Assembly (NCBI GenBank): GCA_000004695.1 | Contig: CM000151.3 | Coordinates: 6,624,001 to 6,688,000 of the forward strand | Direction of reading: 5' to 3' | Length of the DNA: 64,000 bases | From: Dictyostelium discoideum | Taxonomy: Eukaryota | Shown here: positions 3,741 through 51,100 of the stretch, one piece after another | Layout of the letters: each line of letters begins with the position of its first letter | Numbering within the stretch: the first letter of the stretch is position 1 | Notes under the pieces: generated by a model | Databases searched by the model: none | The model's input: only the letters and a program-made list of their open reading frames with translations | What the model was told of the DNA's origin: nothing | Translations under genes and position numbers: made by a program

Positions 3741-4430
3741 ATGAAATTATTATTAACATTAATTTTAATAATTGTAAATTATTGTTGTTTCATAAATGCA
3801 AATAAATTATTTGTAAATTTTGTTGGATCATATAGTTCAAATACATGCGATGGTAATCCAAGTGGAATTGGTTTTTCTTTAGCTGTTGGCCAATGTCTTC
3901 CAATTGAAGGTGTTTTATCATATGTTATAAACGATATGCCACCAACTACCAATTGGTTCATTACAATGGGCGGCAATGGCAATAGTTTCACACTCAAGCA
4001 ATATGATAGCCAAGATCAATGGTGCAAACAAGACCCAATCAATACACTCCAATTCGATAATTTCGATACTTGCGTAGAACAACCAGCTTTCATCAATGTT
4101 AATAATTCTCTTCTTGCCGATACCCCTGTTGTTTATTCCAAATTAACTCTCTCCCAAAATGTTCCAACCTACGCTCCAGACTCTGTGATCATTGGTCAAT
4201 ACAATACAAATACTAATGTTTGTACCTACAATGATCAACAATTCGGTGTCTCTTACACCTCTGGTACTGTCATCTATAATGAAAATGGTATTTCAATTCA
4301 TGTCTTATGTAATCAAGTTAATCAATCAATGATGTTCAAATGTAAAGAAAGTAAATGCGGTGAAACCTTTATTGACACTTATTGTCAAATGTCTGGTGAT
4401 GTTCAAATTTATTGTAACTCAAATAATTAA
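3741..4430 (+). CDS. Secreted Cys-rich protein (229 aa), tandem paralog 1; possibly ponticulin-like family
   Basis: Intact ORF with an N-terminal hydrophobic signal peptide (MKLLLTLILIIVNYCCFINA) and spaced cysteines with repeated 'sYs..tC' / 'iGQYNTNTNVC' modules. About 60% identical to the next gene. The ponticulin-like assignment is from memory only. Confidence 0.7.
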   Translation: MKLLLTLILIIVNYCCFINANKLFVNFVGSYSSNTCDGNPSGIGFSLAVGQCLPIEGVLSYVINDMPPTTNWFITMGGNGNSFTLKQYDSQDQWCKQDPINTLQFDNFDTCVEQPAFINVNNSLLADTPVVYSKLTLSQNVPTYAPDSVIIGQYNTNTNVCTYNDQQFGVSYTSGTVIYNENGISIHVLCNQVNQSMMFKCKESKCGETFIDTYCQMSGDVQIYCNSNN

Positions 4431-4997: not shown

Positions 4998-5375
4998 ATG
5001 AAATTATTATTTGGATTAATATTATTAATTGTAAATTATTGTTATTTAATTAATGCAAATAAATTATTTGTAAATTTTGTTGGAACTTATAATTCTGAAT
5101 CTTGTAGTGAAAGTCCAATTGGAACTGGTTTCTCTATGGCTCTTGGGCAATGTGTTCAAATGCAAGGTATTTTTTCTTATGTCACTAGTAGTTCACCAGA
5201 GGCAACAATTTGGATGGCAACATTGGGTGGTGATGGTAATAGCTTTACATTAAAACAATTCCATAGCTCTGATAAACTTTGTACTGAAGATCCAATAAAT
5301 ACTGTTAAATATAATAAATTTGATACTTGTGTTCAACAACCATCCTTCTTAACTTCAAATAATTCTCTCTTGGCC

Positions 5376-5435
<60 letters not shown>

Positions 5436-5732
5436 CTAGTTTATTCCAAATTAACTTTATCCCAAAATGCTCCTTCCTATGCCCCAAATTCTGTAATAAT
5501 TGCTCGTTACAATTCAAGTGATTCCGTTTGTAATTATAATAATCAAAACTATGGTATTTCTTATTCCACAGGTTCTGTAATCTATAATGAAAATGGTGTT
5601 TCTGTCTATGTTGTATGCGATCAATCAAACCAATCAATACTTTTCCACTGCCAAAATGATCAATGTGTTCAATCATTTACTGATACTTCTTGTGACATGC
5701 CACCAAATGACTTACAAATTTATTGTAACTAA
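4998..5732 (+). CDS. Secreted Cys-rich protein (244 aa), tandem paralog 2, with an internal poly-Asn (N20) insertion
   Basis: Intact ORF with a signal peptide (MKLLFGLILLIVNYCYLINA). It is collinear with 3741..4430 except for an (AAT)n-encoded N20 tract at 5386-5445. Confidence 0.7.
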
Positions 5733-7151: not shown

Positions 7152-8139
7152 ATGGAATCATATTCACCATCAATTCAAAAACTATGTGTTTTCTTAAAAC
7201 CAGAATCAGATATTTCAAACACTGGTATTTCATACTTAAATAATTTCCTCGCTGATATGAGCAATGCCATCATTGTTGAATCAATTCATAGTTCAAAATC
7301 ACATAAACACAAGACAATTCTAATTGAAGACATTGAATCAGCACTCAATGTTGTTTTCCCATCTGAAATTGCAGACTCAATTATTAATCAATCAAAAGGT
7401 CGTATTCAAAGTACTTCTTTAAAGAATTTAATGCAAGTTAAAACTTTTAATAATGGTGGTAATAATAATAATAATAATGAACAAGATAATGATCTACAAG
7501 AAAAAGAACAAAATGAATTATCAGATGATTCAGATGTTGAAGGATTTGAAATTATACCAAATAATAACAATATCTACTCACATGACGTTAGTCTTTGTTT
7601 TCCAATTGATTTGGTGTGTCGTGTAACATTGGATTACATTTGTAGAAAGAAGGTAATCCACCAGAATCCATCCGATTTCTACAAGGTGATAGAACAACAA
7701 CAATCGAATCACGTTATCTATACCTACATCTCTTATGCATTGGAGGTTATCACCACCAAGATTTTAATTAAAATTTCTTCATCCACAGACTTGATCGATG
7801 AAGATATCATCCGAAAAGTCATTCAAGATAATCATCATTTAAATTCAGTTCGTCATAAAAATATTCAAGCTTCAAATATTGCTGGTAAATTGTTAGATTC
7901 TTCTTCCTCTTCAAATTCTAATTTACAAACTTCCTTATCTTCTTCTTTTATTTTCTCTTCAAGTAGTAATAATACTACTACTTTTACACAACAAGAACAA
8001 CAAGAACAATTCAACGACGATAAAATTAGTGGTGATGAAATTGAATTTGAAATTAATAATAGTAAATATTTGGAAAAAGAGGATAAAAAAGATCAATTAA
8101 TTCAAAAAGATGAAGAAATTATTTTAAAAACTTTTAATG

Positions 8140-8208
<69 letters not shown>

Positions 8209-8576
8209 TTAATATTAATAACGATAATGATAATAATAATAATAATAATAAAAATAATGATAATAAAAATTATGATAATAATAATAATAATAATGCCGAT
8301 AAAATAGAAAAACTATCACCTGTAAATAATAATGTAAAAAATAGCGAAATTGAAAAAAATATAGAAAAATTAAAAAATATAAATAATAATAATAATGTTG
8401 AAATTAATGAAGCTTTAATTTCAATCATTAAAGAAACTTGTAAAAATATTCCTTCTTCATCATTTTCTTCTGTAAAAAACTTGAAACGTTCACCACCATC
8501 TTTATTTAAATTCAAAGAGCCAATCGATTTGGTTCAAGTTTTAGCTGAAGGAGGTATACATATGGAAGCAACGTGA
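7152..8576 (+). CDS. Histone H2B-fold protein (H2B variant-like) with a roughly 380-aa low-complexity C-terminal extension
   Basis: The N-terminal 95 aa align with the H2B globular core (ESYS...DTGIS...NFLADM...KHKTILIEDIESALNVVFP.EIA...SKG, versus H2B [78 protein letters not shown]). The remainder is Asn/Ser-rich. A GTGAGT at 8573 followed by ...caaacag at 8720 could add a short 3' exon; this is not resolved. Confidence 0.6.
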
Positions 8577-8607
<31 letters not shown>

Positions 8608-8973
8608 ATTATTATTTTAATTTTTTTAATTAAAAAAATAATTAATATCCCTCAATTTTTAATTACACTTTCTAACATACAATTTTTTTTTTTTTTTATT
8701 TTAATTTTTTATTCAAACAGGAATGGAATGTTTTTAGTTTTATTAGTATTAATGGGTTTTGTTATCCAACATGTCACACATACTCAACAAGTTTGTTGAT
8801 CAATTAATTTATCACTTTTCAATTTTTTATTTTGATCATCAAAAAAAATCTCATTTTATTCTATATTTACCATTTTTAATCTTTTCTTTTTTTTATTTAT
8901 TTCCTTTTTTTTTTTATCACAAAAAAAAAAAAAAAAAGAAAAAAAAAAAAAATAAAAAAAATAAAATCAAATA

Positions 8974-9634: not shown

Positions 9635-10042
9635 ATGATGGAAATTGATAAGAATGTTGAACAATCATCTAATAAAGTTGAATATAATCAACCAAAATCA
9701 CCAATAACTTCAATTTTAGTAAACAACAATAGTAGTAATAATAATAATAATAGTAATAATAAAAATAATAACAATGAGGAAGAATTTGACATATCATCAC
9801 CATTAACATTATCACCAATTGCTAATTGTGGGGCAAGTGGTAGTAATATTGATTCATCAATTGATAATACACCTCACCTATTATCACAAATATCCACTCC
9901 ACCAATATCATCAACTTCATCTATTACATTATTAAATGATAAAAAAAAAGGAATCTATTCAACTTTTTTAGATTTAGATTATTATAATAATACTTATTTA
10001 AAAAATAAACAAAAAATATTACAACCAAAATTAAATCAACAA

Positions 10043-10073
<31 letters not shown>

Positions 10074-10187
10074 CTAAAACATTAACATTTTCATTAGATT
10101 CACAACAACAGCAACAACAACAACCACAACTCCAATCACCTCAATTAATAGATCAACAACAACAACAACAACAACAACAGCAACAGC

Positions 10188-10219
<32 letters not shown>

Positions 10220-10907
10220 ATACCATATCATCAAAGAAAACATCATATATCAATTAGAGATGGTGATGATAATGATAATGAAGTAGATTCATTTAATATT
10301 TTAAGTCAAAATCAATTAATTCATCAAACATTTAATAATCCACAAAATCATCATTACTTTTCATCAACATCACCATCTTTATTGTATCACCACCAACAAC
10401 AAACACAATTAGAACAAAAACCAATTTATTCATCTTCATCTTCATCATCAATTTTATCATCACTATCATCATCAACAATTTCATTTTATAATTCTATTAC
10501 ATCATTATTTCTAACGTTTCCACAAACTATTAGTACAGATCCAATTATAATTAGAGAATACGAAAGATTAAAAATGTTACAAGAACAACAGGTAGGACCA
10601 AGACATACAGAGATTTTATTAAGAAAAGAGGATGGAGTTGGAGGAAGAAAAGCATTGAAAGAAAAGTTTGTTGAAATCTATGAATCCTTTTTCAATGGTG
10701 AAGATCCATCAGAGAACCAACCAATTTTTTGGGAACAATTATTTTTAATTAAAGTTAATATTCCATTCCTTGAAAGATGTATAATCCTAACATCTGAAGA
10801 GAATTTATTAGCTTTAAAACAAAATATTAATAAAATTTTCACTCAATCTTGTTTTTGGTTAAAAGATTCAAATTCTTTAAGATTAACTCATATTATTGAA
10901 GTAAGTA

Positions 10908-10942
<35 letters not shown>

Positions 10943-12269
10943 ATCATTATTATTAATAATATATTTTATATTTTTTATTTTATTTTATTTTAATTTAGAC
11001 ATTAAGTATATTATTAAAAAGTATATTTAGAAAGAAATTTAATAATTTTGGATTTGATATTTTAAATATTTTATGTGGTATAGAGAATTCAGATCAAGTT
11101 TTTACAGATATGATAAAAGATTTAGAACAATTATTAAAGAATTCAAGTATTGATAAAAAGGTTAAAATTGGTGTTATCAATTTATTTACAATCATTGCAA
11201 CAGCAACAGAATATATTAATCAAAATACACTCTTACAATACTTTATGTCTGTAAATATCTTTGATACATTGGTTACATTCTTGGGTGAAGATGATATTCC
11301 AAAACAAACTCAATTAAATATTCTCACTTTACTTTGTTACTTTTCAAACTTTCAAAAATATGAAATTACAAATCCATATTTAAAAGATTTATCAAATTTA
11401 TCTGATCCAATTAAAGTAAATTTAATAATTTAATAATTTAATAACTTAATTTTATATTTTATTATTAACATTTTTTTTTTTTTTTTTTCATATAATTTTA
11501 GATATTAAAAATTTTAAATTTAATAACACAAAATTTAAAAGATCATAATGAATTTTTTGAACAACAATATAGAGATCCAAATTTAGGTATGGTATCAAGA
11601 TTTAGTGGATATTTAAGTAGTTGGGTTTATTCACCTAAAGTAGTACAACCATTATCATTCTATGAAACTGGATCAAGTTTAATGATATTGTATGAATTAT
11701 TCTATCAAAATGATCATTTTGTAAACATGTTGGTAAAAGGTGGATTACCATTTGCAAATGGTGGTGAAAATGGTTCAACATGTCCAGATATCATTAAACA
11801 ATTCTTTAGTTTTTGTGCTTATTTAGCATCGGATGCTCAAAAGGATTTGAAAACCATTTACTCTAGAATGGCATTGTTAATATTACTTTGCATTTGTGAA
11901 AAGAGAGAATTGGAAGATTTCTTTCATGATATTAAATCAACTTGTTATATCTTTATCTACTCAAAGAAATCATTGTTCTCAGATCCAAAGGAAACTGAAA
12001 AACATCCTTTATCATGTTGGACATTGGATATTTTATCTCAATTCATCAAATGTAATCTCAAAGGTAAAATCTCAATGGATGTTCATCAAAGTGCTGTAGA
12101 TTGTATTCATCGTATAGTATCTTATAAAAAGAAAACTTTAAATCGTTTACCTTATAAATGGAGTGAACTTTGGAGTGCTTTATTCTCTTTAATTTCAATG
12201 GTTTCAACTTTAAATATTTCAAATGATAAAATTCAATTAAATCAATCAATTCATGTTGGTATAAGTGTA

Positions 12270-12323
<54 letters not shown>

Positions 12324-12947
12324 CTTCTCTAAAAATAATATTTTATTAACTTTTTTTTTTTTTTTTCACTTTTCCCCAAGACTGTTAATATTTTTAATCT
12401 TTTTATAAATTATGGTGATTCATTTTTACCAAGTCCAAATGATTATGATGAATTATTTTATGAAATTATTCGTTCTGGTCAAGTTATTGAAAATTTTTAT
12501 CAATTTATTTTAAACCAAACAACAACTGGAGGTCAAAGTGTTACATCTCCATCAGCAGCAGCATCAGCATCTAATCCAACAACACCAACTCCATTATCAC
12601 CTCAACAATTACCAACTATTACTACTACTACTACTACCATCACTTCTAATAATGAATCAAATAATCCATTATTAAATCAATTATTAAATATAAGATCAAT
12701 CGTTCAACACTTTACAAGTAAACTTGAAGAGTGGTCAGCAAATAATGCAGAGGTTGCTTTAACTGCACCACAAGTTTCAAAAATCATTAAAGATAATTAT
12801 GATACACTCAGACTTAAACTTCAAGAGAATTTAGATCAATTTGAACCATATGTTGAAAATCCAAAAGAAGTTTTATTCTTTAAACATATTATTAAAGAAT
12901 TAATTAATGATTTAAGGAAACAAATTAATGTTACTAATATAATTTAA
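9635..12947 (+). CDS. 4-exon gene encoding a roughly 1004-aa protein: N-terminal poly-Q/poly-N region plus a conserved helical (armadillo-like?) C-terminal region; function unknown
   Basis: Exons inferred by eye: 9635..10900 (donor GTAAGT), 10999..11415 (acceptor tttag; donor GTAAAT), 11502..12266 (acceptor ttttag; donor GTAAGT), 12381..12947 (acceptor ccccaag; stop TAA). This joins three track ORFs and an unlisted 3' exon into one frame-consistent reading frame. Introns are AT-rich with poly-T. Confidence 0.6.
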
Positions 12948-16386: not shown

Positions 16387-16459
16387 GCCCGTTTAGCAAA
16401 GTTGGAATTGCGGCAGCCTTCTAAGCTGCAGGTCGTGGGATCGAGACCCACAATGGGTG
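16387..16459 (+). tRNA. tRNA-Arg (anticodon UCU), copy 1
   Basis: Cloverleaf read by eye: acceptor GCCCGTT/AATGGGT (two G-U pairs), A box TAGCAAAGTTGG, D-stem GCAA/TTGC, anticodon stem GCAGC/GCTGC with loop CTTCTAA, T-arm GTGGG-ATCGAGA-CCCAC. An identical copy lies in inverted orientation at 23152..23224. Confidence 0.75.
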
Positions 16460-16490
16460 ATATTTTTAACTGGGAAATTTATAGATCGCA

Positions 16491-16503
16491 GGTTCAATGT
16501 CTG
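16491..16503 (+). promoter_or_regulatory. External B box (exB) downstream of tRNA-Arg copy 1
   Basis: GGTTCAATGTCTG lies 32 bp after the tRNA 3' end. Dictyostelium tRNA genes typically carry an extra B box about 30-40 bp downstream. The same spacing is seen at 22448..22459 (-), 23108..23120 (-) and 56481..56492 (-). Confidence 0.6.
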
Positions 16504-16649
16504 ATATGAAGATACACGTGAAAAGTAATTCATCCTTTTCTATCCTTAATCTCGGTCAATTTTAACCAATCTTTCAAAAAAAATCACCAATCCACCACGA
16601 TCTACAGATCTAACTTACCAAATCGCCGATTCAAAGGAATCCCATCGAG

Positions 16650-17903
16650 ATGAATTCCTACGCAGACGCGGCTAAAATGGCCAACCCCTCCACCCATATG
16701 GACGAGGCATCAGAGAACTTCATTAAGGAATTCTCCACAAAAACAGCAGAGATAAAGGAGACCTACCCCAAATTATCAATAGGCCTCAAAGACATCTCCA
16801 AATACTGCGAGACCATATTGAACATGACTGCTCTCTCAACCTACGAGAAAAACAACGGATTCTACCCAATTACACTCGAATTCCCCAAAATGGATCTCAT
16901 GGGGTTAGAAGAAATGAGAAAAACACTCTCAAACTACGATATCCCAATCGACAAGATATACATAGGCAAAGGAACTAGAAAAACGATCCACCTGATGATT
17001 AAAAACGAACAATCTCTCCTAAATATCATTAGAGATAGAAGCAAATTGGGAACCTTCATCACCTCCAGTAGAGACTACCACGTCCTCACAGGAAGAGTAA
17101 GAATTCCAAGAGAAAAGGCAGGAATAGTGGACGCCCTCATCAAAACTGCCTTTGCAGAAGAAATACCCTATGCAATATACCATACTATATACTCCACCGA
17201 CCACCTCCTAGTATTCGGTCTAATAGAATGCAAAATAGGCGATCAAATGAAATCTGGCCAACACAATACAGAAATCGCCAACTTTACCATCAGAACGGCC
17301 ACCAAAACCTACTCCTCACAAAAGAAAAATAAGAAAGTAGAGTCAAACAACACGGAAGAACCATTAGAAGATGAGATGACAGATGATCCTCCCAACATCC
17401 AAAACAGGATAGCAATCAAATCCTCTCAACCAAAACCACAACAACAAACATACAACCCAGCAAACAATAAGTCTGATAAACAATCAACCCAAGAGAAAAA
17501 AGCCCAATCAAAAAAGTCCTCTCAACCTCTTCCCCCCAAAAACCAAGCAGAATCTCAATCTGTCAAACCCACCACAACCACTACCACAACATCCAACGCC
17601 ATCCAAAAAGACAATGCCAACAAAACGAGCACTAACATCCATTCATCCTCGGAAAACAGAGAGAAGACACCAAACATCCCTCCATCACATAAACGCAAGA
17701 ACGAGGAAATCCACTCAAACAACGAGGTCACCCAACTCTCACCAACAATAAACAGAAGCAACCCTTACATCCCATCCACCCCTAAGACACCTGTCAAAAA
17801 AGAAAGGAAAGGAATCATTGAGAGCTTCATAGAGAGTATCTACCCTTCACCATCCAAACCGCAGCTATACGACTCCCAAGAGGAGATCGATATCATCTCA
17901 TAA
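16650..17903 (+). CDS. Retrotransposon ORF1 (417 aa)
   Basis: GC-richer than the host DNA. Basic/Ser-Thr-rich C-terminus. Its stop overlaps the ORF2 ATG (TAATG). Confidence 0.75.
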   Translation: MNSYADAAKMANPSTHMDEASENFIKEFSTKTAEIKETYPKLSIGLKDISKYCETILNMTALSTYEKNNGFYPITLEFPKMDLMGLEEMRKTLSNYDIPIDKIYIGKGTRKTIHLMIKNEQSLLNIIRDRSKLGTFITSSRDYHVLTGRVRIPREKAGIVDALIKTAFAEEIPYAIYHTIYSTDHLLVFGLIECKIGDQMKSGQHNTEIANFTIRTATKTYSSQKKNKKVESNNTEEPLEDEMTDDPPNIQNRIAIKSSQPKPQQQTYNPANNKSDKQSTQEKKAQSKKSSQPLPPKNQAESQSVKPTTTTTTTSNAIQKDNANKTSTNIHSSSENREKTPNIPPSHKRKNEEIHSNNEVTQLSPTINRSNPYIPSTPKTPVKKERKGIIESFIESIYPSPSKPQLYDSQEEIDIIS

Positions 17904-20900
17904 TGGTAGTAATCAAAATCAACCAATGGAATGTCAGAGGTTGGGGCACTGACACCTCCTTCAAAAACAAAACAGACTTTATCAAATCCCAATCCCCCCC
18001 AAACTCATTGGCACTAACCATAGTCAATGAACTCAACGCCGACGCAACACAAGCACACCAGCTATTTCCTGGCTCCATCATTAGCGCAACCAACAGAGGC
18101 AACGGAATAGGAATACTAAACCACAACAACCAAAACATAAAACTCTCACCAATATTCATAATAGAAGGTAGACTAATAATATCAGACATTCTAATAAAAG
18201 ATACCACAACGAGAATCTTGGCCATATACGCCCCGGCCCAACCTGATAAGGGAAAAATACTAGCTTGAACACTAAACAAACACTTGAACAACCAATACCA
18301 CAACCTAACGTCTAACCCTAAAAAAAACATCGACATCATAGCAGGTGACTTCAATTGTTTAGACTTCAATGACAATCACACATCAAATGACGACCAAGGC
18401 AACTTGACAACACAATCCCCAGATGAGATGGCCACAGTAATTGAAGCCATCAGAATTTCAAATAACCTAATGGATATGGACCAACTAAATAAAAGACCCA
18501 CCTTCTCAAGAACGATACACAACACAAACAATAACCTCACAAGAATCTTGGAAAGGAGACTAGACAGAATATACCTTAACAATAGCATAATCAACTACAG
18601 TCAATTATACTTAAGGAACCTAATCCCCCCAAAAATTAACGACATACCTCTATCAGATCACAACTTCCTATCAACCACCTTCACTCTACCCAACATACAG
18701 ACGAACATGCGCAGATGGAGATTAAAAAAATCCTCAATCCTCTCAAGCATAATGCTTAAGAAAATAGACATCCTACTTAACGATTATTCAAGGGAGCTGT
18801 CATCCAACCATAACTCTATTTCCTTCTCTCAACTCAACAGCTTACTGAACAAAATAAAACAACTATACACAGAATTTCAAAAACAAAACGACTACAACAA
18901 TAAGGCAAACATCAAAAATCTAATCTCCCTACTAGAGACAGAATTTAAAGACCAAGCCTTTGCAACCCTTTCAGCAATAAATGAATCTAAAAGAAGAGAA
19001 GAACAACTTAAACAAGAATTGAACAACTATTGCGAAGAAACCTCACTCAAGTACATCTCCGCGAGAATCAAGAAAAGACACAATGATTTCACCATCAACG
19101 CAGTAAAAGATACACAAGGTAGAACAATCAACAAACAGGAATTGATCGAAGAAGAATACGTAAAATATTACTCAAATCTTTATGACTACAAAGAAGATGA
19201 CCCACCATCTCATTATGAAATGTTGGAAAATTGGACAGTGACCAGGGACTCAACATGGGACAACCTTGAAAATGAATTCACATCACAAGAGATCCTAGAA
19301 GTAATAAAACAATTGAACCCACACAAATCTCCAGGCCCAGATGGAATTCCAAACTTATTCTACATAACACACAAAGAAAAACTAGCTCCAATACTGGCCT
19401 CAGCATTCAACGACACTCTAAGAAATCCTCATCTAATTAGCAAAAATTACAAAGAAGGCCTCATTATCACGATACCTAAAAAGGGAGATCCCGAACTAAT
19501 CAAAAACAGAAGACCAATTACACTGGCCAACTGTATATATAAAATCCACTCAAAACTAATAAACAATAGAATAATCCCAATACTAACGAAAGTGATCAAC
19601 CACAATCAAAAAGGTTTCGTACCAGGCAGATTCATTCTCGATAATATCATATCAATTAACGAATTAATCAACTATTGTAATGATAAAAGAATTAACGGAA
19701 TAATTACACTATATGATTTCGAAAAAGCTTTTGACTCGATCTCACACGGTTCAATACTCAGATCACTACAACACATCAACATTCCAACCAATATAATCAA
19801 CCTGATAATGAATCTACTCACCAAATCTGAGGCAAGAATTGAAATTAATGGTAGAACTACTATACCCTTTGAGATCAAAAGAGGAGTTAAACAAGGAGAT
19901 CCACTATCACCCACCCTGTTCGTCCTTGTAATAGAGGCTTTAGCTAGAAAAATTTTACAAGATGACCGAATTACTGGCCTTCCTCTAAACAACAGCAACC
20001 ACAGAGAGAAATTCCAAAGCTTTGCAGACGATTCGGCTTCAATGGTCCCAGACTCTCAACAACTTGAATTAGTACTACAACACTTCAATTCATTTTGCAA
20101 AGCCACTTCCTCAAAACTAAACATCGACAAATCTTCATCAATTCTTATAGGCAACCCAGACAATACCAACCAAAGAATTCCAATATCTACAAATCCAGAA
20201 AGATACTTGGGATACTTCTTCACAGGCAAAGGGATAACAAGAAAAATGCCAGAAATATTAAACACAATAAGATCATCCTTAGTACTATGGAAAACCACTG
20301 ACTCAACAATCAAAACCAAAACCAACATCCTCAAAGCATTCGCACTCTCTAAATTAACCTACTATTCATATGTAGAGAACTTTAAGGAAGAGGAATTAAA
20401 CCAAATCAATAAATTGGTCGAATGGTTTTTATCGGCACCTAACAACAAAAATGCTAGTGGATTTCAAGTTATTAATTTAATGAGAACCAAAAGAGCAAGA
20501 TACCCACTAAATGTAGGGGGCTGGAACATTTGGAATATAGAATTGAGACAACTGGCGCAGAAACTTTGGATCATAAACCAGTTCATCCTAGCACTAGAAA
20601 CCAAACAAACAAACTCATCTCATCACAAAAGCTGGGAATATCAGATCCAAAAAAACAAATTCACATCCAGATACCTAAAAGAAAACTTAGACGAATGGAA
20701 CAAAATAAGAATAAAAAAAGCAATCTTCAACAATAATCTCACATCCATAAAAAACGAAAATGGACAACCACTTTCACTGGCAGAATGGTATACCACAATT
20801 CAAGACCAAAATCCAACCATCCCTAAAACGGAATTCCAATCATCTCTAAACTTAAGAGGCTACAGCTATAATCAACTCTTCAACAACATACTGAAGATAA

Positions 20901-21493
20901 AAGACCCTAAAACAAGAGACACAATGTTTAGATTCCATGCCAGATGCCTTCCAATAAACTACCTTCACAACAAACAATGCCCACTCTGCAAAGAAGATAT
21001 GAGCAAAGACCCATACGGTCACCTGTTCTTCTCATGCAAGAAAACAAAACAATTCATAAAAATAAATAAACTCAAAAATTTCATCTATATTACCACAGGC
21101 AAAGGTAAAAACTGGCACCATACAAACTTTGAATGGAACTATAAAGCAATAGACTATGATCTAACTAGATCATTCGCATATAGAAACCTAATGGCCCTTA
21201 TCCTCCACAACATTTGGATTTGGATTTGCAATCAAATATACAGTGAAGATCCTTTAACAGATGAATCACTATCATACAGCTCCCTTCTAAAGAAATGGCA
21301 CAAATTGGCCACTCTAGAATACATCAAAAAAGCAAAAGATCTGAAAAACTTATCAGCAAAAGACCATAATAACTTCAAAGATCCTAAGATCCTTCTCACT
21401 TCAACGATCAAGCTAAGAAAAACAACAGCTAATTACTATTGTATTCCAGAATCATCTCTCCCAAATATTATATCTTTTGATCAATTCATATGA
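17903..21493 (+). pseudogene. Retrotransposon ORF2 (endonuclease-RT-zinc finger) interrupted by a single in-frame TGA at 18266..18268
   Basis: Track ORFs 17903..18268 and 18284..21493 are in the same frame (both coordinates are 2 mod 3). They are separated only by TGA, within the endonuclease domain. Confidence 0.75.
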
Positions 21494-21590
21494 TTAAAAT
21501 AACCCTTCAGCTTAAATGATAAGCCTTTAAATAAATATTAAATAAAACTCGTATTAACACAGATGGACATATATCAATCTTGTTAATCCA

Positions 21591-21626
<36 letters not shown>

Positions 21627-21822
21627 CCTACAGTTGATCAAACGGATACTAGATACAGAAAAACATATCCATCATCAATCTAACATCAACTCCCAAATAT
21701 TATATCTTTTGATCAATTCATATGATTAAAATAACCCTTCAGCTTAAATGATAAGCCTTTAAATAAATATTAAATAAAACTCGTATTAACACAGATGGAC
21801 ATATATCAATCTTGTTAATCCA

Positions 21823-21860
<38 letters not shown>
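21459..21860 (+). repeat. Tandem duplication of the element's 3' terminus: the last 35 nt of ORF2, the 3' UTR and poly(A), present twice
   Basis: 21459..21625 and 21691..21860 are near-identical (ctcccaaatattatatcttttgatcaattcatatgattaaaataaccc...aatattaaaaaa(A)n). A 65-bp unique spacer separates them. Both copies lie inside the TSD-bounded element. Confidence 0.9.
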
Positions 21861-21864
<4 letters not shown>

Positions 21865-21871
21865 GAAGATA

Positions 21872-22150
21872 AATTAAAAAATCAAACTTATTATACCACC
21901 ATATATGAAGAAAGATCATGAAATTAACATAGACTACATTCATATAAGATTTCACACTTCGTATGGTGCTATAGATCTATATATTATGACCTTTCAAGAC
22001 TTTTCTCATTAAAAAACTTAAAAGCAATGATATTTCACTAGGTATGGATATGGATTTGCAATCAACTATACAGTGATGACAAAATTCAAGCCACAAAATT
22101 AGACTATGATATGATCCTTAAAAAATAGTACAAATCCGCACCTTAGTTTG
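21872..22150 (+). mobile_element. Diverged remnant of a related retrotransposon ORF2 3' region
   Basis: 22050..22085 (ggatatggatttgcaatcaactatacagtgatgac) matches ORF2 at 21220..21250 (tggatttggatttgcaatcaaatatacagtgaagatcc). 'agactatgat' is also shared. The rest is degenerate. Confidence 0.45.
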
Positions 22151-22490
22151 CTTTATAATTCCTCATTGGGTATATATATTAGAATTTTTTTTTTTTTTTT
22201 TTTAAATATTGATTGATCAGTGTTTATCCATTAAAGGAAATAAACAATAAACCATTAATGGTTTTATATGTGGATTTTAATTTTAAAACATAGTGTAGTT
22301 ATAGTTATTATTATTATCATTTTTATGTTAGTCCAAAAAAATTAAACAAATCAAATAATAAAATTAACTATTTTATTAAATTGGAAAGTTGATTTAAATC
22401 TTTTTCATTTTATAGAGCATACGATTTCTCAATCATAGTTGAATATTGAGAATCGAACCTGTTATCAGTAAATCTTACTGGGGAAAACAT

Positions 22491-22573
22491 TGCAAGAGGC
22501 GAGATTCGAACTCGCGAACCGAATGGATGAGATCTTAAGTCACACGGATTTAACCAGACTTTCCTACCCTTGC
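22491..22573 (-). tRNA. tRNA-Leu (anticodon UAA) with a long variable arm
   Basis: Minus-strand read: GCAAGGG-TA-GGAAAGTCTGGTTAAATCC-G-TGTGA-CTTAAGA-TCTCA-TCCATTCGGTTC-GCGAG-TTCGAAT-CTCGC-CTCTTGC-A. T-arm GCGAG/TTCGAAT/CTCGC, a 12-nt variable arm, and an exB box GGTTCGATTCTC at 22448..22459. Confidence 0.65.
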
Positions 22574-23151
22574 TTTGGATGGAAATTTTATTTTATTGGT
22601 TTTTAAACCTGGCACCATCATCCCATAGAAAAACTAAAAACTCTCATCCATAAATCATAATTGAGAAGCAATTGTGTATAAAATACATTTTTGATAGATC
22701 TATAAAAAAGAAAAGATCAGATTCCAAAAAAAGATTGTTTCACCAAATTATTTTCTATGGTTTGCTAGGCATTTTCAAAACAAAAATAATATTTTTTTAA
22801 TTTTTTTTTTTTAGGTCATTTTTTCCCAGTTATTTATTAATGTTTGGGTTATTACTCTTTCTTTTAAAATAATTTAATGTTTGCCATCAAATCTATCAAA
22901 AATATAATTTAAAAATTTCTTTTTTAAATTGGACTATGTGGTTTCAATTTTTTCACTGATATTACTTTCATATGCATTATTTTATAATGGTCGTAGAAAT
23001 ATTTCATTGTTTAAAATTTATATGTAAAAAAAGAGAATATATTGGAATATCCAAAATCACTTGGAATACTAGACCCAATTATGTGATGATGTTTTTGAAT
23101 GAATGATCAGACATCGAACCTACGATCAATATTTTCTTTGGCATAAAGATT

Positions 23152-23224
23152 CACCCATTGTGGGTCTCGATCCCACGACCTGCAGCTTAGAAGGCTGCCG
23201 CAATTCCAACTTTGCTAAACGGGC
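23152..23224 (-). tRNA. tRNA-Arg (anticodon UCU), copy 2, inverted relative to copy 1
   Basis: Exact reverse complement of 16387..16459 (73/73). The downstream exB box (rc GGTTCGATGTCTG at 23108..23120) is conserved, but the spacer between has diverged. Confidence 0.75.
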
Positions 23225-24063: not shown

Positions 24064-27000
24064 ATGGCAACAAGTTGTAATATTAGAGTAATGTGTAGGT
24101 TTAGACCACTAAATGAAAGGGAGAAAGCATTAAAAGAGAATCAAACCTGTGTTACATTTCCTGATGAAACACAAGTTATAGTTTCAGGTCAACCATTTAC
24201 ATTTGATAGAGTATTTACACCAGAATCAACACAAAAAGAAGTTTTTGAATCTGTTAAAGATACAATTCATGATGTATTACTTGGTTATAATGGTACACTT
24301 TTAGCATATGGTCAAACAGGTAAATATTTATAATAATAATAATAATAATAATAAGTATAACTTTTTGTATGCACACATATTAATATTTACAAATTATTAA
24401 GGTTCTGGTAAAACATTTACAATGGGATCAGCAGCAGCAGAATCTGATTTTGAAAATGTTGAGCAGTTAGGTATTATACCAAGGGGTAATCATTTAATTT
24501 TTAATACAATTGCAGAAGAAAGTGATGGAAATGCAGAATTTACAATTAAATGTTCATAGTAAATATAAATCAATTTATTATTATTATTATTTTTTTTTTT
24601 TTAAAAAAAAAATAAGTTATTAATTAATTTTTAAATTTTTTTTATTTATATTATTTTGATATTAATAGTTTAGAAATTTATATGGAAAATATTCAAGATT
24701 TATTAAATCCAAAAAATAATAAACAATTGAAAATACGTGAATCAAAATCACAAGGTATATATGTTGAAGGATTGACAGAGGAGTATGTAGCAAGTGAAGA
24801 GGATATTATGGAATTGATTCAAGTTGGTGAATCGTCACGTTCAGTTGCAAAAACCAATATGAATCAAAGATCATCACGTTCACATAGTATATTGATTATA
24901 GCGATTGAACAAAAGAGTTCAGATGGTAGTAAGAAAAGGGGTAAATTAAATTTAGTGGATTTGGCAGGCTCTGAAAAAGTTAGTAAAACTGGTGCAGAGG
25001 GTATAGTTTTAGAACAAGCTAAAAAGATAAACCAATCTCTATCATTATTGGGAAATTGTATTCATGCATTGACAGATTCAAAACGTGAGCATATACCATT
25101 TCGTGATTCAAAACTCACAAGATTATTACAAGATTCATTGGGTGGTAATACTAAAACAACATTATTAGTAACTGCTTCACCACATTTTAACAATGTTGAT
25201 GAAACTATTTCAACACTTAAATTTGGTGCTCGTGCAAAGTCAATCAAAAATAATGTTAAAGTGAATCAAGAGAAAAGTGCTGCCGAATTACAAATCATTG
25301 TGAATGCTCTAACAAAAGAATTATCAATTTTAAAAGTTTATTCAATATCTTTAGAAAATTTAGTAAATTATTTTAAATCTTCATCATATCAACCTGGTAA
25401 TCCAATACCAAAAGAATTGGAACCAAATAAACAAAATTTATTATTATTACAACAACAATCAAATAGTAGTAGTGGTGGTGGTGGTAGTGGTAGTAGTGGA
25501 GGAAGTAGTAATGGTAGTTTAATGATGAAACCTAGATCAACAACACCAACACCACCATCAATTAATAGACCACATTCATCAGCATCAACACATAGACATT
25601 CAATTGCAATTACTGGCACACATAGTAAAGAGGGTAGTGGTGGTGGATTAACATCATCAATTTCATCATCATCAATTTCATCAATGTCATCATTATCATC
25701 ATCAATTGATAATGATTATAATGGTTCATCATTGGATGATAGTAATGGTAGTAATGGATTATTTAATCCATTGGCAATTGTTGAAATGTCAATTGAAATG
25801 GAGAAAATGAAAGAGGATACTCAATTATTGATTGAAAAGTTTAAAGATGAAATATCAGAGATTACAATTCAATATCAATCAACTCAAGAGGAATTAAATC
25901 AATGTCGTCAACAATTGGATCAAATTAAAGAACAGCTTGAACAACAACGTTCACAATTCATTAAAGAACAATCTCTATTAAAAGAGAGTGAACGTAATGC
26001 AACACTTGATTCAACTTCAAAAGATTTGAAAATTCAATCCCTAATTAGCAAAATTGAGGATTTACGTCTATTGGCCTCACAAGTTATACAATATTTAGAG
26101 AGAAAAAGATTATCAGATGATTTTGATATTGGTATTTTTATGGGTTCTCAAGATGGTGCAAATGGTGATTCTGCCAATATGTTCTCTTTAATTTCAAACT
26201 CTATCGATCAAGGTACCTATGAAGATGATGTAAACATTGAGGATATTATACGTTATCTATCAGAGGAAGAGGTTTTAACAATGCAAGTTAAATTACAATT
26301 ACAAAATAAAGTTCATCAATTGGAACAAAAAATTCAACAATTGGTGTCTGATTTAAATACAACTGAAATTAATTATAATCAATCAATATTACAATGTCAA
26401 AAATTTGAATCTGAAAATTCATTAATTAAACGTAAATTTAAATCAATGTTTTCATCTTCAAATAATAATAATAATAATAATAACAGTCCACCATCTTCAC
26501 CTTCTTCAAAACTATTAATTCAATCATCAAATAATAATAATAATTTTGATTCAAATTTAAATTCATCATCATTATCATCATCATTACCATCATCAAATGG
26601 TATTGAACAAGATCAACAAGTTGATCATCAAGTTGATCATCAAGTTGAAAATGATCATTTGGTTAATGATGAAGATAATAAATTATTGGATGAAAATTCA
26701 AAACTTAAAGAAAATGAATTAAAATTATTATTAGAAATAAAGAATCTTAAATTACAATCTGAAAAGAGTAATGATGAAACTTTGAAATGGAAAGATGAAT
26801 TATCAATTAAATCTGCACTTTATCAAAATCAAATTTTAAATCTTCAAAATGAAAATCAATCATTATCAAATAAATTAAATGTAGAGAAACAACAAAAACA
26901 ATCTTCACAATCACAACAAATTGAATTGTATGTATATATATTTATTTTTTAATTTTTAATATTAATATATCAAAACTAATTTTTTTTTTTTTTATTATTT

Positions 27001-35046: not shown

Positions 35047-37094
35047 ATGGAAAATAATAAACCTTATAAGTTTATAGACAGAAATTTAAATATCATTAAA
35101 AAAAGTGGTAGTTATGAAAATATTTATAAATCATTTAAATATGAAATACCAGAATATTTTAATATTGGTTTAGAAGTTTGTGATTATTATGCAAATGATC
35201 CTAATAAAATGAATAATATTGCAATTAAACATATTTATGATACTGATGATAAACAAATTTTAAAAGAGTATGTAATTAAAAAAAATATTAATAATTTAAT
35301 TAAAATAAAATAAAATAAAATAAAATAAAAAAAAAAAAAGGACAAATTCTAAAAAAAATAAAATTCTATTTTTAAATTATTAAAAAAAAAAAAAAAAAAA
35401 AATAAAAAAAAAAAAAAAAAATTAGGTATACATTTAAAGAAATTAAAATTAAATCAAATCAATTGGCAAATAAATTTAAAGAAATTGGTTTAAATAAAAA
35501 AGGTGAAGTTGTTGGTGTTTTTTTAACACAAGGAATTGAATGTGCTTTATCACATATTACAATATTAAGAAGTGGTTTTATTGGATTATTATTATCAGTT
35601 TTATTTGGACCAGAAGCTTTAGAATATAGAATTTCATCATCATCAGCTTCATGTGTTATCACTGATTTAGATAATATTCATAAACTATTAAAAGTAGTTC
35701 CAAATTTACCAAGTTTAAAGAAAATTATTGTATTTGGTGATAATTTAAATTCAATTAATTATTCAAAACATAAAAATATTGTTGAATTGTAATAATTAGT
35801 ATATTTATATATATATTATTTTTAATTTTAAAATTTCACAATACATACTAATCAATATAAATATATATTATTTTAATTTAACTTTAGATGGAATGAAAAT
35901 ATTTGTAATAATTATTCAAAAGAATTTGAACCAATTATAACCAAATCAAATGAACCAGCATATTTAATATATACATCAGGTACAACTGGGTTGCCAAAAG
36001 GATGTTTACATGCACATAGAGTATTAATTGGTAATAATGTTGGATTACAATTCACATTGAATCTATTCCCTCAAAATACAGTATCAGTAACAGAGAATTG
36101 TTATTATTCACCCGCTGATTGGGCATGGATTGGTGGATTATTAGTAGTGTTTTTACCATCATTATATTTTGGTGTACCTTTGTTAGCATATAAATCAAAA
36201 GGTCCATTTGATGCAAAGAAATTATTAACACTAGTGAAAACTCATAATGTAACAATGTCATTCTTACCACCATCTGCATTGAAAATGATAAAGTTTCAAA
36301 AGGATCAATTAAAAGATCATAAAATTAATAATATGTTGGCAATCAATAGTGGTGGTGAAAGTTTAGGTGAGAATTTATTAGTTTGGTCAAAAGATCAATT
36401 TGGTGTTGAAGTTGCTGAATTTATTGGGCAGAGTGAAGGAAACTTCATTACTGGTAATTGTTTAGATTTATTCCCTCCAAAGAATGGATCAATGGGTAAA
36501 CCAATACCAGGGAGCAATGTCAGAATATTAAATGATAATGGTGAGCGAGTACCTCACGATGAAGTTGGTTATTTATGTATAGAATTTACAGGTGATAATG
36601 CAAATCAATTCTTAGGTTATTGGAATGACCCTAGTTCAACAGAGAAAAGAATGATTTTCTCAAAAGAAAGTGGTACCAAATGGATAAAAACTGGTGACCT
36701 TGCAAAAGAGGATAGTGATGGCTACTTTTGGTATATTGGTAGAGATGATGATGTTATTAATTCAAGTGGTTATCGTATTGGTCCAAATGAAATTGAAGGT
36801 TGCCTACTAAAACATCCATTAATTTTAAATGTTGCTGTTATTGGTATACCTGATGAAATTCGTGGTGAAGTTGTAAAAGCATATATTGTTTTAAATCAAT
36901 CAGTAACACCTTCACAAGAGATAAAAAAAGAAATTCAAAATTATGTTAAAACTCAATTATCAGCTCATCAATATCCAAGAGAAATTGAATTTATAAATCC
37001 AAATGAAATGCCAATCACAACAACTGGTAAAATTATGAGAAATTCATTAAGGCAATTACATAAAATGAAAAGTAATAATAAATCAAAAATTTAA
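35047..37094 (+). CDS. AMP-dependent acyl-CoA synthetase/ligase (medium-chain type), 3 exons, about 596 aa
   Basis: Exons: 35047..35267 (donor GTATGT), 35426..35788 (acceptor attag; donor GTAATA), 35888..37094 (acceptor ctttag). Motifs: AMP-binding YTSGTTGLPKG, linker TGDLAKEDSDGYFWYIGRDDDVINSSGYRIGPNEIE, C-terminal GKIMR. Confidence 0.8.
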
Positions 37095-39470: not shown

Positions 39471-41132
39471 TTATAAAACAATATTACCATGTTTTTTAGT
39501 TGGATTTGATAATTTTTTATTTTTAAGAATTTCTAAATCTTCACAAATGTATTGACGAGACATTCTTGGTGGGATGATATCATCAATGAAACCTCTACGA
39601 GCAGCTGGTAATGGATTAGCAAATTTATCATTGTAAATTTGTTCTTGTTCTTTGATGTCACCTTTGCCTCTAAAGATGATTTCTACGGCACCTTTTGAAC
39701 CCATGACAGCGATTTGACCGGTTGGCCAAGAGTAATTGGTATCACCACGAAGATGTTTGGATGACATAACATCATAGGCACCACCATAAGCTTTACGAGT
39801 GATAATTGAGATCTTTGGAACGGTAGCTTCAGCGTAAGCATACAATAATTTAGCACCATGTCTAATGATACCATTGTGTTCTTGATTAGTACCTGGAAGG
39901 AAACCTGGAACATCGATGAGAGTTACAATTGGAATATTGAAACAATCACAGAAACGTACAAAACGGGCGGCCTTAACAGAGGCATCAATGTCTAAACAAC
40001 CTGCGAGTTCTTTTGGTTGATTGGCAACGAAACCAACAGTACGACCCTCCATACGAGCATAACCAACGATGATATTCTTGGCAAACTCTGGTTGAATCTC
40101 AAAGAATTCTCCTTCATCAACGATACGTTCAATGACTTCTTTCATATCGTATGGTTTGTTTGGATCGTCTGGAATGATTTGATCCAAGACATCATCTTCA
40201 CGAGATGGTGAATCGAATGCTTCTCTCATGGCTGGTTCATTTGGATTTGATGGGAGGAGAGTGACAAATTCACGAACTCTCTTTAAGGCATCGATATCAT
40301 TGTCAAAAGCAAGATGGGCAACACCAGATTTGGTGGTATGGATTTTAGCACCACCTAAACCCTCTTGAGAGATCTCTTGATTGGTGACAGATTTGACAAC
40401 ATCTGGACCAGTGACAAACAAGTAACTGGTGTCCTTTACCATGAATACGTAATCGGTGATGGCTGGTGAATAGACGGCACCACCAGCACAAGGTCCCATG
40501 ATGACAGAGATTTGAGGAATGACACCACTTGCCATAACATTACGTTGGAAAACTTCAGCATAACCAGCCAATGAAGCGATACCTTCTTGAATACGAGCAC
40601 CACCACTATCGTTTAAACCAATGACTGGTGCACCAACTAACATTGCTTTATCCATGATCTTGCAAATCTTTTCAGCATGTGCTTCAGAGAGTGAACCACC
40701 ATTGACTGTACTATCTTGACTGAATACAAATACCAATTTACCATTGATTGTACCATGACCTGTTACAACACCATCACCTGGTGTCTTTTCAACGTTGAAA
40801 TCAGTACAACGATGGGTTACCAACATATCGTACTCTCTAAATGATCCATCATCCAATAAGAGATCCAATCTTTCACGTGCTAATAATTTACCTTTACCAT
40901 GTTGAACATCAATCTTCTTTACACCACCTCCTAATTGTGCTCTCTCTGTTTCTTCTTGAATTCTACCATTTATTCTTTCAATTGTTGATTCATATTTTAC
41001 TGCTTTGAATGGTTCTTTTGCTGGTGTTGGTTTACCTGTAGCAAAACTTTTAATACCTTGTGATGATACATTTTTACAATTCTTATTCAAAAATTGAATA
41101 GTATTTTTATTTAATAATCTTCTTGATAACAT
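39471..41132 (-). CDS. pccB: Propionyl-CoA carboxylase beta chain (carboxyltransferase), mitochondrial precursor, 553 aa
   Basis: Full-length collinear similarity to PCCB (…[123 protein letters not shown]…). The N-terminus is basic (MLSRRLLNK). Confidence 0.9.
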
Positions 41133-50100: not shown

Positions 50101-51100
50101 TCATTTTCTAAATTTAATATACCTTTAAATTTATATAAATTATTATTTGGGAATTCACATTGAATATTACCTTTTAATTTTATAAATTGTTGTTGTTGTT
50201 CTTGTTGTGATTCATTTAAATTTAATGATATATTTTTAAATTTTGAATGTGTTTCATTACATGATTTAAAAATTTTTAAATTTGATTCACCATCGAGTTC
50301 ACTAGTTTCTACAAAACATACACCATCGCCTAATGATGAAGAACTTAATAAAATTATATCTGCAGGAATCGATTGATTATTATCTATCTTTATAATATCA
50401 CCAACTTTTATATTTTTACTTTTAATTAATTTAAATTTTGATGATTCTATATCATAATTTTCTTGTTGTTGTTTTTGTGGTAATGGTGTTGTTGATGATG
50501 ATAGTGGTGGTTGTTGTTGTTGAGGTATTGGTTTTGGAAGTTGATATATTAAATATTCTTTATAATTTGATGATTTATCCGCTCTATATCTTTTAAAATC
50601 TTCGTACGCTTCTTTAATAGCTGTTAACCCAACAATCAAACCTAATGGTAATATAGTAGTTGATGGATCCAATGGACTAACTTCTGGAATTAATGTTATT
50701 ACACTAACAATTACAAAATAAATCTTTTTTTTGAAAAAAAAAAAAAAAACAAGAGTTAATTAATAATTTTATTTTATTTTATTTTATTTTATTTTATTTT
50801 ATTTTATTTTATTTTATTTTATTTTATTTTATTTTATTTTATTTTATTTATAATGTTATTTATTATATTAGTTTATATTACATTTGTATATTTTTTGAAT
50901 TGTTCAAATAAATTTTTAAAAATAAAATTATATCTTGTATATTTTGTGGTTGAAATTTCATTATCAGAAAATAATGATTTTATTTTTTTTTCGTTGTTAT
51001 TTGAAAAAAAAAAATTATTTTTAAAAGTATTAAAATAAATATTTGGATATGTCGTTCTCTTTTTTTTTAAATTTCTTTTTTTTTTATTAAATATTTTCAT
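47139..51100 (-). CDS. P4-type ATPase (phospholipid-transporting flippase), 2 exons, about 1267 aa
   Basis: Exon 1 51100..50882 (MKIF...ISTTKYTRYNFIFKNLFEQFKKYTN; donor GTAATA). Exon 2 50723..47139 (acceptor aaaaaag; IYFVIVSVITLIPEVSPLDPSTTILPLGLIVGLTAIKEAYEDFKR...). Motifs DKTGTLTENKM, TGDKQETAINIG, GDGANDVSMIQEANIGIGI. The track ORF lacked the TM1-TM2 exon. Confidence 0.8.

Follow-up and report, generated by a model that had tools for sequence, protein, structure and literature searches.

A 64,000-nucleotide stretch of Dictyostelium discoideum DNA (assembly GCA_000004695.1, contig CM000151.3, forward-strand positions 6,624,001 to 6,688,000; here called the window) was analysed with respect to one gene that starts at window position 7152. 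The best explanation overall, preferred on balance, is that this gene encodes a tail-anchored, non-DNA-binding H2B-H2A histone-fold doublet that serves as a membrane docking module. A dictyostelid-specific protein of 499 amino acids (aa) would carry the two histone folds as a single-chain pair, which would face the cytosol or nucleoplasm at the endoplasmic reticulum (ER) or nuclear envelope. A flexible spacer of ~195 residues would hold this module away from a juxtamembrane block and the anchor, and the module, shaped like an H2A-H2B dimer, would serve as a dock or mimic for factors recognising histone-fold dimers. The architecture is well supported; the location and the docking or mimic function we infer.

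To obtain relatives, 1.84 billion representatives were searched exhaustively with a profile of the second conserved block. Only four real relatives were found, all of them dictyostelid: D. cf. discoideum, the EukProt protein P0001 (gene9194-11268_t), Synstelium polycarpum and Acytostelium subglobosum. Those named by their sources were all called 'hypothetical protein'. This profile search, run with a hidden Markov model (HMM), and two word-index searches returned nothing beyond the dictyostelid family, and P0005 was rejected as a repetitive artefact. A large search with a mixed profile, dominated by canonical histones, merged gene models and PDB chimeras, yielded no natural non-dictyostelid relative; none was found in 2.9 million viral contigs or in metagenome contigs. 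In an exact-sequence look-up, neither the 474-aa nor the 499-aa model was present in the protein collection. The gene may be one of the minor 'H2B domain' genes (H2Bv1, H2Bv2) listed in dictyBase. The literature found on H2Bv1 and H2Bv2 held nothing about this protein, and no paper describing it was found.

Residues 2-82 were aligned end to end and without large gaps with the H2B core, from 'KESYS' through alphaC. Comparison of domain 1 with the H2B chains of the PDB using phmmer gave an expectation value (E) of ~1e-5. A family profile from four species reached 1e-7 against the PDB, all matches listed being H2B chains or engineered H2B-H2A constructs, and hhalign assigned domain 1 to H2B with 94% probability (E 1.4e-7). 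The Pfam score of the window protein for PF00125 was sub-threshold (14.5 bits, cut-off 26.4), and no PF00125 match was obtained for the Synstelium and Acytostelium orthologs in the Pfam scan. The protein begins at the position of H2B K34, and all orthologs also begin with ME..SYS. In the structural model described below, domain 1 showed values of 84-96 in the predicted local distance difference test (pLDDT), with helices at residues 5-15, 23-50, 58-68 and 71-87. Judged from these alignments, the N-terminal ~90 residues are an H2B-derived histone fold without an N-terminal tail. A preliminary description of the open reading frame (ORF), based on the letters of the window, had placed its start at the H2B core, with alpha2, alpha3 and alphaC retained and the N-terminal tail absent. 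Both statements were confirmed, the second for all orthologs as well. Pfam and profile comparisons of the N-terminal region, which were suggested there, were divided: PF00125 remained below its cut-off, whereas phmmer, the family profile and hhalign were significant for H2B. The protein had been described as a variant histone or a histone-fold adaptor; the non-canonical, H2B-derived nature of the fold holds, and adaptor fits better than variant histone.

Domain 2 was compared with the four core histones using hhalign. H2A was the best of the four when the domain was represented by a four-genus alignment (score 21.1, P 0.008), with alpha2, L2, alpha3 and alphaC in the expected register; H2B, H3 and H4 scored only 10-12, and the reversed domain scored 12.2 against H2A. 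The observed score was reached by none of 300 shuffles, the maximum being 16.6 for 150 column shuffles and 18.4 for 150 block shuffles. A profile of two sequences had not been significant (E 0.14), and improvement was obtained only with four genera. A repeat with H2A segments drawn from database proteins resulted in P 0.016 and the same register. Using MAFFT, H2A was colinear over the whole of domain 2; identity to H2A was 17-23%. The residues invariant in all rows of this alignment were L148, F150 and P151 (H2A L23, F25 and P26), E198 (E56), I224 (I87) and L230 (L93); the H2A positions kept in domain 2 were LxFP, E56, I78, I87, L93 and L96. This evidence for an H2A-like domain 2 is suggestive, short of conclusive. 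A match of domain 2 to cathepsin H (E 0.069) was discarded as spurious.

Structures were predicted with AlphaFold2. In the second run, eleven trimmed canonical H2B cores were added to the domain-1 columns only, and domain 2 was left without outside sequences. The best model had a mean pLDDT of 74.4 and a predicted template modelling score (pTM) of 0.72. Domain 2 showed pLDDT values of 70-96 and helices at residues 152-169, 188-207, 217-226 and 228-249. It was modelled as a histone fold, paired with the H2B-like domain 1 in an L1-L2 handshake. A beta-bridge connected residues 20-21 with residues 214-215, the homologues of H2B G53-I54 (L1) and H2A R77-I78 (L2), and the structural and sequence registers therefore agree. 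In a Foldseek search of the PDB, the top 36 matches were all single-chain H2B-H2A constructs (E 4.7e-6 to 2.6e-4) with ~240-250 aligned columns, and template modelling (TM) scores relative to the target were 0.70-0.79 where the target was the histone pair only. The next matches were the histone domain of Son of sevenless (SOS) and the Melbournevirus H2B-H2A doublet. A single-chain H2B-H2A histone-fold doublet, with its domains packed in the classical handshake, is considered probable.

Both folds were compared with canonical histones in a residue table. Hydrophobic-core and structural positions were kept in each. The DNA contacts of H2B were replaced (K46V, K57T/N/G, R86H/Q, R92E/D, R99N, K108D/E), and those of H2A were lost (R17, R20, R29L, R35, K36D, R42, R77 and R81D, with K74-T76 deleted). 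H2B Y83, which belongs to the H4 four-helix-bundle interface, was replaced by S, T or Q, and the acidic patch was mostly lost (H2A E61, E64, E91 and E92; H2B E113). The net charge was -2 to -3 for domain 1 and -1 to +2 for domain 2, compared to +5 to +6 for the canonical H2B fold and about +6 for that of H2A, and -16 to -23 for the whole proteins. With almost all contacts to DNA and H4 and the positive charge lost, the module therefore probably neither wraps DNA nor enters nucleosomes. Read against established nucleosome structure, these replacements argue that the protein probably has no part in DNA wrapping or octamer assembly. They go further than the preliminary description, in which a nucleosomal role was called not obvious.

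Removal of the intron at 8573..8720 from the gene model appends NGMFLVLLVLMGFVIQHVTHTQQVC to the reading frame, and translation of the spliced model gives a 499-aa product that ends in a hydrophobic segment (residues 476-492) and a 7-residue tail. In three of the four relatives, the sequence continues beyond '...EA(T/S)' with a tail of this kind, which is identical to the predicted spliced tail in D. cf. discoideum and homologous to it in Synstelium and Acytostelium. The donor AAC/GTGAGT at 8573 is common to the window gene and D. cf. discoideum, in which an equivalent acceptor is present; between these two, substitutions and indels have accumulated in the intron, and exon 2 is 100% identical. 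The last intron of Acytostelium subglobosum cuts the homologous codon (Ser404, aligned with Thr474 of the window protein) in the same phase. The model of ortholog P0001 stops exactly at the conserved intron position, at '...IHLEAT'; this public gene model is probably truncated and lacks the last exon and the anchor. Splicing of 8573..8720 was accepted because three orthologs share the tail and the Acytostelium intron matches in codon and phase. On this comparative evidence, cDNA (complementary DNA) aside, the intron is almost certainly spliced and the true product has 499 aa. The GTGAGT...CAG sequence, which had been listed in the preliminary description as a candidate intron, is thus backed by the ortholog tails, by the conserved codon and phase and by the divergence of the intron beside an identical exon 2.

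The TGA of the 474-aa ORF overlaps the donor site at 8571-8578 (ACG/TGA read over AC/GTGAGT). Without splicing, translation would therefore yield a soluble protein minus only the membrane anchor, and retention of the intron could serve as a switch between an anchored and a free form. A retained intron would likewise lead to a stop in Acytostelium, after three codons.

The C-terminal segment was the most hydrophobic stretch of each protein in three genera, with a Kyte-Doolittle mean of 2.3-2.5 over 15-19 residues. The next-best window reached 1.4-1.6 and was located inside the domain-2 helices in two of the three proteins. The anchor segment shows an invariant Gln, then 7-10 non-basic residues with a conserved Cys. 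The layout is that of a tail-anchored protein: a lone hydrophobic segment near the C-terminus, no signal peptide, and an H2B fold at the N-terminus. The segment is therefore taken as a predicted membrane anchor, a reading that is likely. For tail anchors, high hydrophobicity and non-basic flanks favour the ER or nuclear envelope over mitochondria or peroxisomes, and we infer residence at the ER or nuclear envelope solely from these two properties. A Cys was present at or near the C-terminus in all three complete orthologs (QQVC at 8776-8796, VVCEASA and PVKC); a disulfide of this conserved, unexplained residue to a luminal partner is possible. Two further candidates for the C-terminus were rejected. 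A KASH domain did not agree with the endings QQVC, EASA and PVKC, which contain neither PPPX nor VPT, and gave no Pfam match with E up to 10. C-terminal prenylation (CaaX) was ruled out by the endings VC, KC and CEASA.

A nuclear-envelope location would allow a stronger claim: the protein could be the first cellular (non-viral) natural H2B-H2A doublet, a nuclear-envelope mimic that, through its de-charged module and DEF/Y-like motif, couples histone-dimer-recognising machinery or chromatin to the membrane. Its luminal tail with the conserved Cys could then engage a luminal partner. This is regarded as a tentative and rather unlikely reading.

Conservation of the protein was block-wise. Between genera, identity was 41-61% in domain 1 (residues 1-95), 40-46% in residues 137-250, which are of ordinary complexity, and 38-56% in residues 446-499, which are also of ordinary complexity. 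In the juxtamembrane block, P-S-L, D-L, I and E-A were invariant, and no relatives of this C-terminal block were found in Pfam or the PDB. The spacer (251-445) showed 15-24% identity with 61-133 gap columns against the orthologs, and it is much shorter in Synstelium, whose whole protein has 361 aa. The coding sequence of D. cf. discoideum, which lies in the same surrounding gene order, differed, apart from repeat-length indels, by few substitutions, too few for an estimate of dN/dS; its poly-Asn tract is 69 nucleotides (nt) shorter, and further 3-nt indels were present elsewhere in the spacer. Repeat length also varied at 7461-7480, in the linker region. There is evidently no constraint on repeat length, whereas the conserved blocks on either side do not differ from those of D. 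cf. discoideum. The preliminary description had assigned ~380 residues after the H2B core to an Asn/Ser/acidic low-complexity extension. Only residues 96-124 and 251-445 are of low complexity, and about half of the assigned extension was therefore misjudged. The conserved H2A-like second fold within this extension and the anchor-like segment added by splicing were both missed.

The most conserved block of the protein is the acidic-aromatic motif at residues 125-136, with the family pattern DDxDVxxFEIIP and an invariant F-E-I-I-P. In H2A-H2B-binding proteins, the DEF/Y motif consists of F or Y preceded by consecutive acidic residues (PMC9477414). Its aromatic residue inserts into an H2B pocket of Y42, I54 and M59, and its users include the inner-nuclear-membrane SUN protein Sad1 (PMC11109203, PMC9477414). 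The residues at the motif Phe are E-G-F in the window protein and Synstelium, NEF in P0001 and RDF in Acytostelium. Of the pocket positions, I54 and M59 are kept in domain 1 as I21 and I26, and Y42 is Gln. A possible partner of the motif is the module itself, in cis, or genuine H2A-H2B, in trans. The protein could be membrane-bound and bind or buffer real H2A-H2B through residues 125-136, like Spt16, Chz1, Swr1, Anp32e and Sad1, with its internal pair as a cis competitor or auto-inhibitor. This would agree with the rank of the motif as the most conserved block, with the position of the invariant Phe behind an acidic run (two species have E-F or D-F there), with the precedent of DEF/Y and Sad1 (PMC11109203, PMC9477414) and with the retained I21 and I26, which would allow a cis interaction. 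However, E-G-F in the window protein and Synstelium departs from the strict DEF/Y definition, the pocket residue Y42 and the capping residue H2A R77 are lost, and the motif has a pLDDT <50 in the model. A binder of this kind is considered improbable.

Several observations weigh against the tail-anchored doublet. Domain 2 gave no histone match with phmmer or hmmsearch against PDB sequences and Pfam, its hhalign probability for H2A was only 3-5%, and its alignment is shallow, with five sequences. The first AlphaFold run, with five sequences and no H2B rows, resulted in a pLDDT of 42.5 and an empty fold search, and only one of the five models of the second run was confident (74.4, then 61, 60, 40 and 39). 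AlphaFold may also favour supplying an H2A-like partner to a recognised H2B. Orthologs were found in only four genera, the uninterrupted hydrophobic core of the anchor measures only ~14 residues in the window protein, and the family motif fits the strict DEF/Y pattern only loosely, as seen from E-G-F in the window protein.

If the doublet were an AlphaFold artefact, residues 125-250 would form an unrelated helical domain, and the partner of the H2B fold would be a separate histone-fold protein, paired in trans. The missing phmmer, hmmsearch and Pfam matches of domain 2, the poor first model with its empty fold search and the lower confidence of four of the five later models would be expected in this case. 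The sequence comparisons, which are free of structure, nevertheless gave the same register and preferred H2A over H2B, H3 and H4. In addition, H2A-specific motifs are invariant in the family, and the predicted beta-bridge is located at homologous L1 and L2 residues. An unrelated domain is judged improbable, slightly more so than the binder.

A genuine chromatin histone is very improbable. The protein would then be an H2B variant or a self-contained H2B-H2A unit in nucleosomes and, if anchored, would staple chromatin to the inner nuclear membrane. Its H2B homology is clear, its best structural matches are nucleosomal H2A-H2B dimers, and viral H2B-H2A doublets form nucleosome-like particles (PMC8357426). 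The DNA-contact residues of both folds are replaced, however, H2B Y83 and most of the acidic patch are lost, and the fold charges of about -2 and +1 (canonical +6 and +6) stand in a protein of -16 to -23. A decaying pseudogene or gene-model artefact without function, for which the name 'hypothetical protein' of the orthologs and the sub-threshold Pfam score could be cited, was dismissed in view of a reading frame that is uninterrupted in five genomes or transcriptomes of four genera, the block-wise conservation with invariant residues, the conserved intron position and phase, and the identity of exon 2 beside a diverging intron.

A viral origin of the tail-anchored doublet is unlikely because domain 1 is nearer to cellular H2B and no relatives were found in the viral contigs; as far as the sequences tell, a lineage-specific fusion of cellular histone genes is more likely than viral acquisition. 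The family appears to be a secondary, lineage-specific fusion freed from DNA binding. In many animal entries of 215-400 aa named 'histone H2A-like' or 'H2B-like' (e.g. P0008, P0044, P0057-P0083), an H2B core was accompanied by an H2A core or by a second H2B core. Such entries seem to result from neighbouring histone genes merged in annotation, not from real fusions, and would contaminate surveys of natural eukaryotic histone doublets.

The coordinates of the gene, of the parts of its product and of other features of the window are given in Table 1.

Table 1. Features of the gene at 7152 and of the surrounding window (positions in the window; residue numbers refer to the 499-aa model)
Feature	Position	Strand	Remarks
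ATG-to-TGA ORF	7152..8576	+	474 aa
Exon 1	7152..8572	+	codons 1-473 and first two bases of codon 474
Intron	8573..8720	+	148 nt, GTGAGT...CAG, phase 2
Exon 2	8721..8799	+	last base of codon 474, codons 475-499, stop TGA 8797-8799
H2B-like domain 1 (aa 1-95)	7152..7436	+	alpha1, alpha2, alpha3, alphaC; no N-terminal tail; net charge -2
Variable Asn/Gln/acidic linker (aa 96-124)	7437..7523	+	6-24% identity with gaps between genera; pLDDT <50
Acidic-aromatic motif DDSDVEGFEIIP (aa 125-136), DEF/Y-like	7524..7559	+	67-92% identity
H2A-like domain 2 (aa 147-250)	7590..7901	+	insertion after alpha1; shortened L2 and docking segments
Low-complexity spacer (aa 251-445), including poly-Asn tract	7902..8486	+	Asn fraction 0.33
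(AAT)n array encoding poly-Asn, inside spacer	8135..8294	+	Tandem Repeats Finder: period 3, 53 copies
Juxtamembrane block (aa 446-473) PPSLFKFKEPIDLVQVLAEGGIHMEA	8487..8570	+	44-56% identity across genera
Predicted transmembrane tail anchor (aa 476-492) GMFLVLLVLMGFVIQHV	8725..8775	+	followed by 7-residue tail ending in Cys
tRNA-Arg(TCT)	16387-16459	+	flanks GC-rich island
tRNA-Leu(TAA)	22491-22573	-	flanks GC-rich island
Second tRNA-Arg(TCT)	23152-23224	-	flanks GC-rich island
Kinesin motor	24682-26952		
AMP-binding enzyme	35991-37094		
Carboxyltransferase	39471-41132	-	
P4-type phospholipid ATPase	47139-50672	-	
APC2	52259-54511	-	
Dynein heavy chain, C-terminal two thirds	57538-63999	-	

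The window is very AT-rich (GC 0.16-0.38), and the gene is located among ordinary Dictyostelium genes. Tandem paralogs of CfaA/B/C (counting factor-associated) were found directly upstream at 3741-4430 and 4998-5732. The same pair precedes the D. cf. discoideum ortholog (L002 703-1392 and 1904-2605), and local synteny is kept. Downstream, a Gln/Asn-rich ORF (9635-10993) is followed by an ORF with an ARMH3 C-terminal domain (11589-12332); the two probably belong as exons to a single gene, and the corresponding D. cf. discoideum model has more than 1000 aa. A GC-rich island at 16387-23224 (GC 0.32-0.39, compared to ~0.2 around it) contains a 417-aa ORF and a 1069-aa reverse-transcriptase ORF (16650-21493). 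With its flanking tRNA genes, the island looks like a tRNA-gene-targeted retrotransposon of the non-LTR (long terminal repeat) class, as in the Dictyostelium TRE type.

Fused histone folds ('histone repeats') are described as rare in eukaryotes and are central to arguments on nucleosome evolution via repeat intermediates (PMC11222145, PMC9145170). A conserved natural H2B-H2A doublet in a genetically tractable model organism would be a useful comparison case for these. No KASH protein can be identified in Dictyostelium, and its Sun1 is suspected to reach chromatin by way of histones (PMC13510849). If the protein resides in the nuclear envelope, it would bear on the links of chromatin, centromeres and histone traffic to the envelope in this organism, the connectors of which are unidentified (PMC13510849). 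For annotation, it matters that the family is missed by Pfam, that the orthologs are called 'hypothetical protein' and that the P0001 model is without the anchor. A histone-fold pair joined to a membrane anchor was not found described in the literature searched.

The protein was finally compared with known systems. With canonical H2B, of which H2Bv3 is the major Dictyostelium form, it has the core alignment including alphaC in common; unlike canonical H2B, it has no basic tail, remains below the Pfam threshold, has lost the DNA and H4 contacts and is fused to further domains (499 aa, compared to about 125-150). The order of the folds, H2B before H2A, is that of the engineered single-chain dimers (PDB 6w4l, 4m6b, 7ybf, 8uqe). 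These are laboratory fusions of canonical, highly basic histones, whereas the window gene is natural, and identity to them is about 20-27% in the H2B part and 17-23% in the H2A part. In contrast to these constructs, the window protein has a 50-residue acidic linker, no DNA-contact residues and a predicted membrane anchor. The doublets of Marseilleviridae (PDB 7n8n, 7lv8, 9cvt) likewise contain the two folds in one chain, with H2B first. They are of viral origin, package DNA and form nucleosomes (PMC8357426); a membrane anchor is absent from them. The window protein is 10-14% identical to 7n8n and 7lv8, compared to 23-27% to cellular H2B.

The histone domain of SOS (PDB 1q9c) shows 11-17% identity and no detectable sequence relationship. 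SOS is a multi-domain Ras guanine nucleotide exchange factor (Ras-GEF) without a transmembrane segment, whereas the first fold of the window protein is still recognisable as H2B by sequence. Spt3 and the prokaryotic double folds (TTHA1479, AQ_328, M. kandleri HMk) have lower structural similarity, no H2B- or H2A-specific motifs and other contexts. The similarity to Sad1 of S. pombe and Mps3 of S. cerevisiae is a functional analogy only, in that a membrane protein of the envelope is combined with an H2A-H2B-type dimer (PMC11109203, PMC3087001). The SUN proteins bind free dimers (H2A-H2B or H2A.Z) by a short DEF/Y motif, whereas the window protein has no SUN domain and itself carries a dimer-like module.

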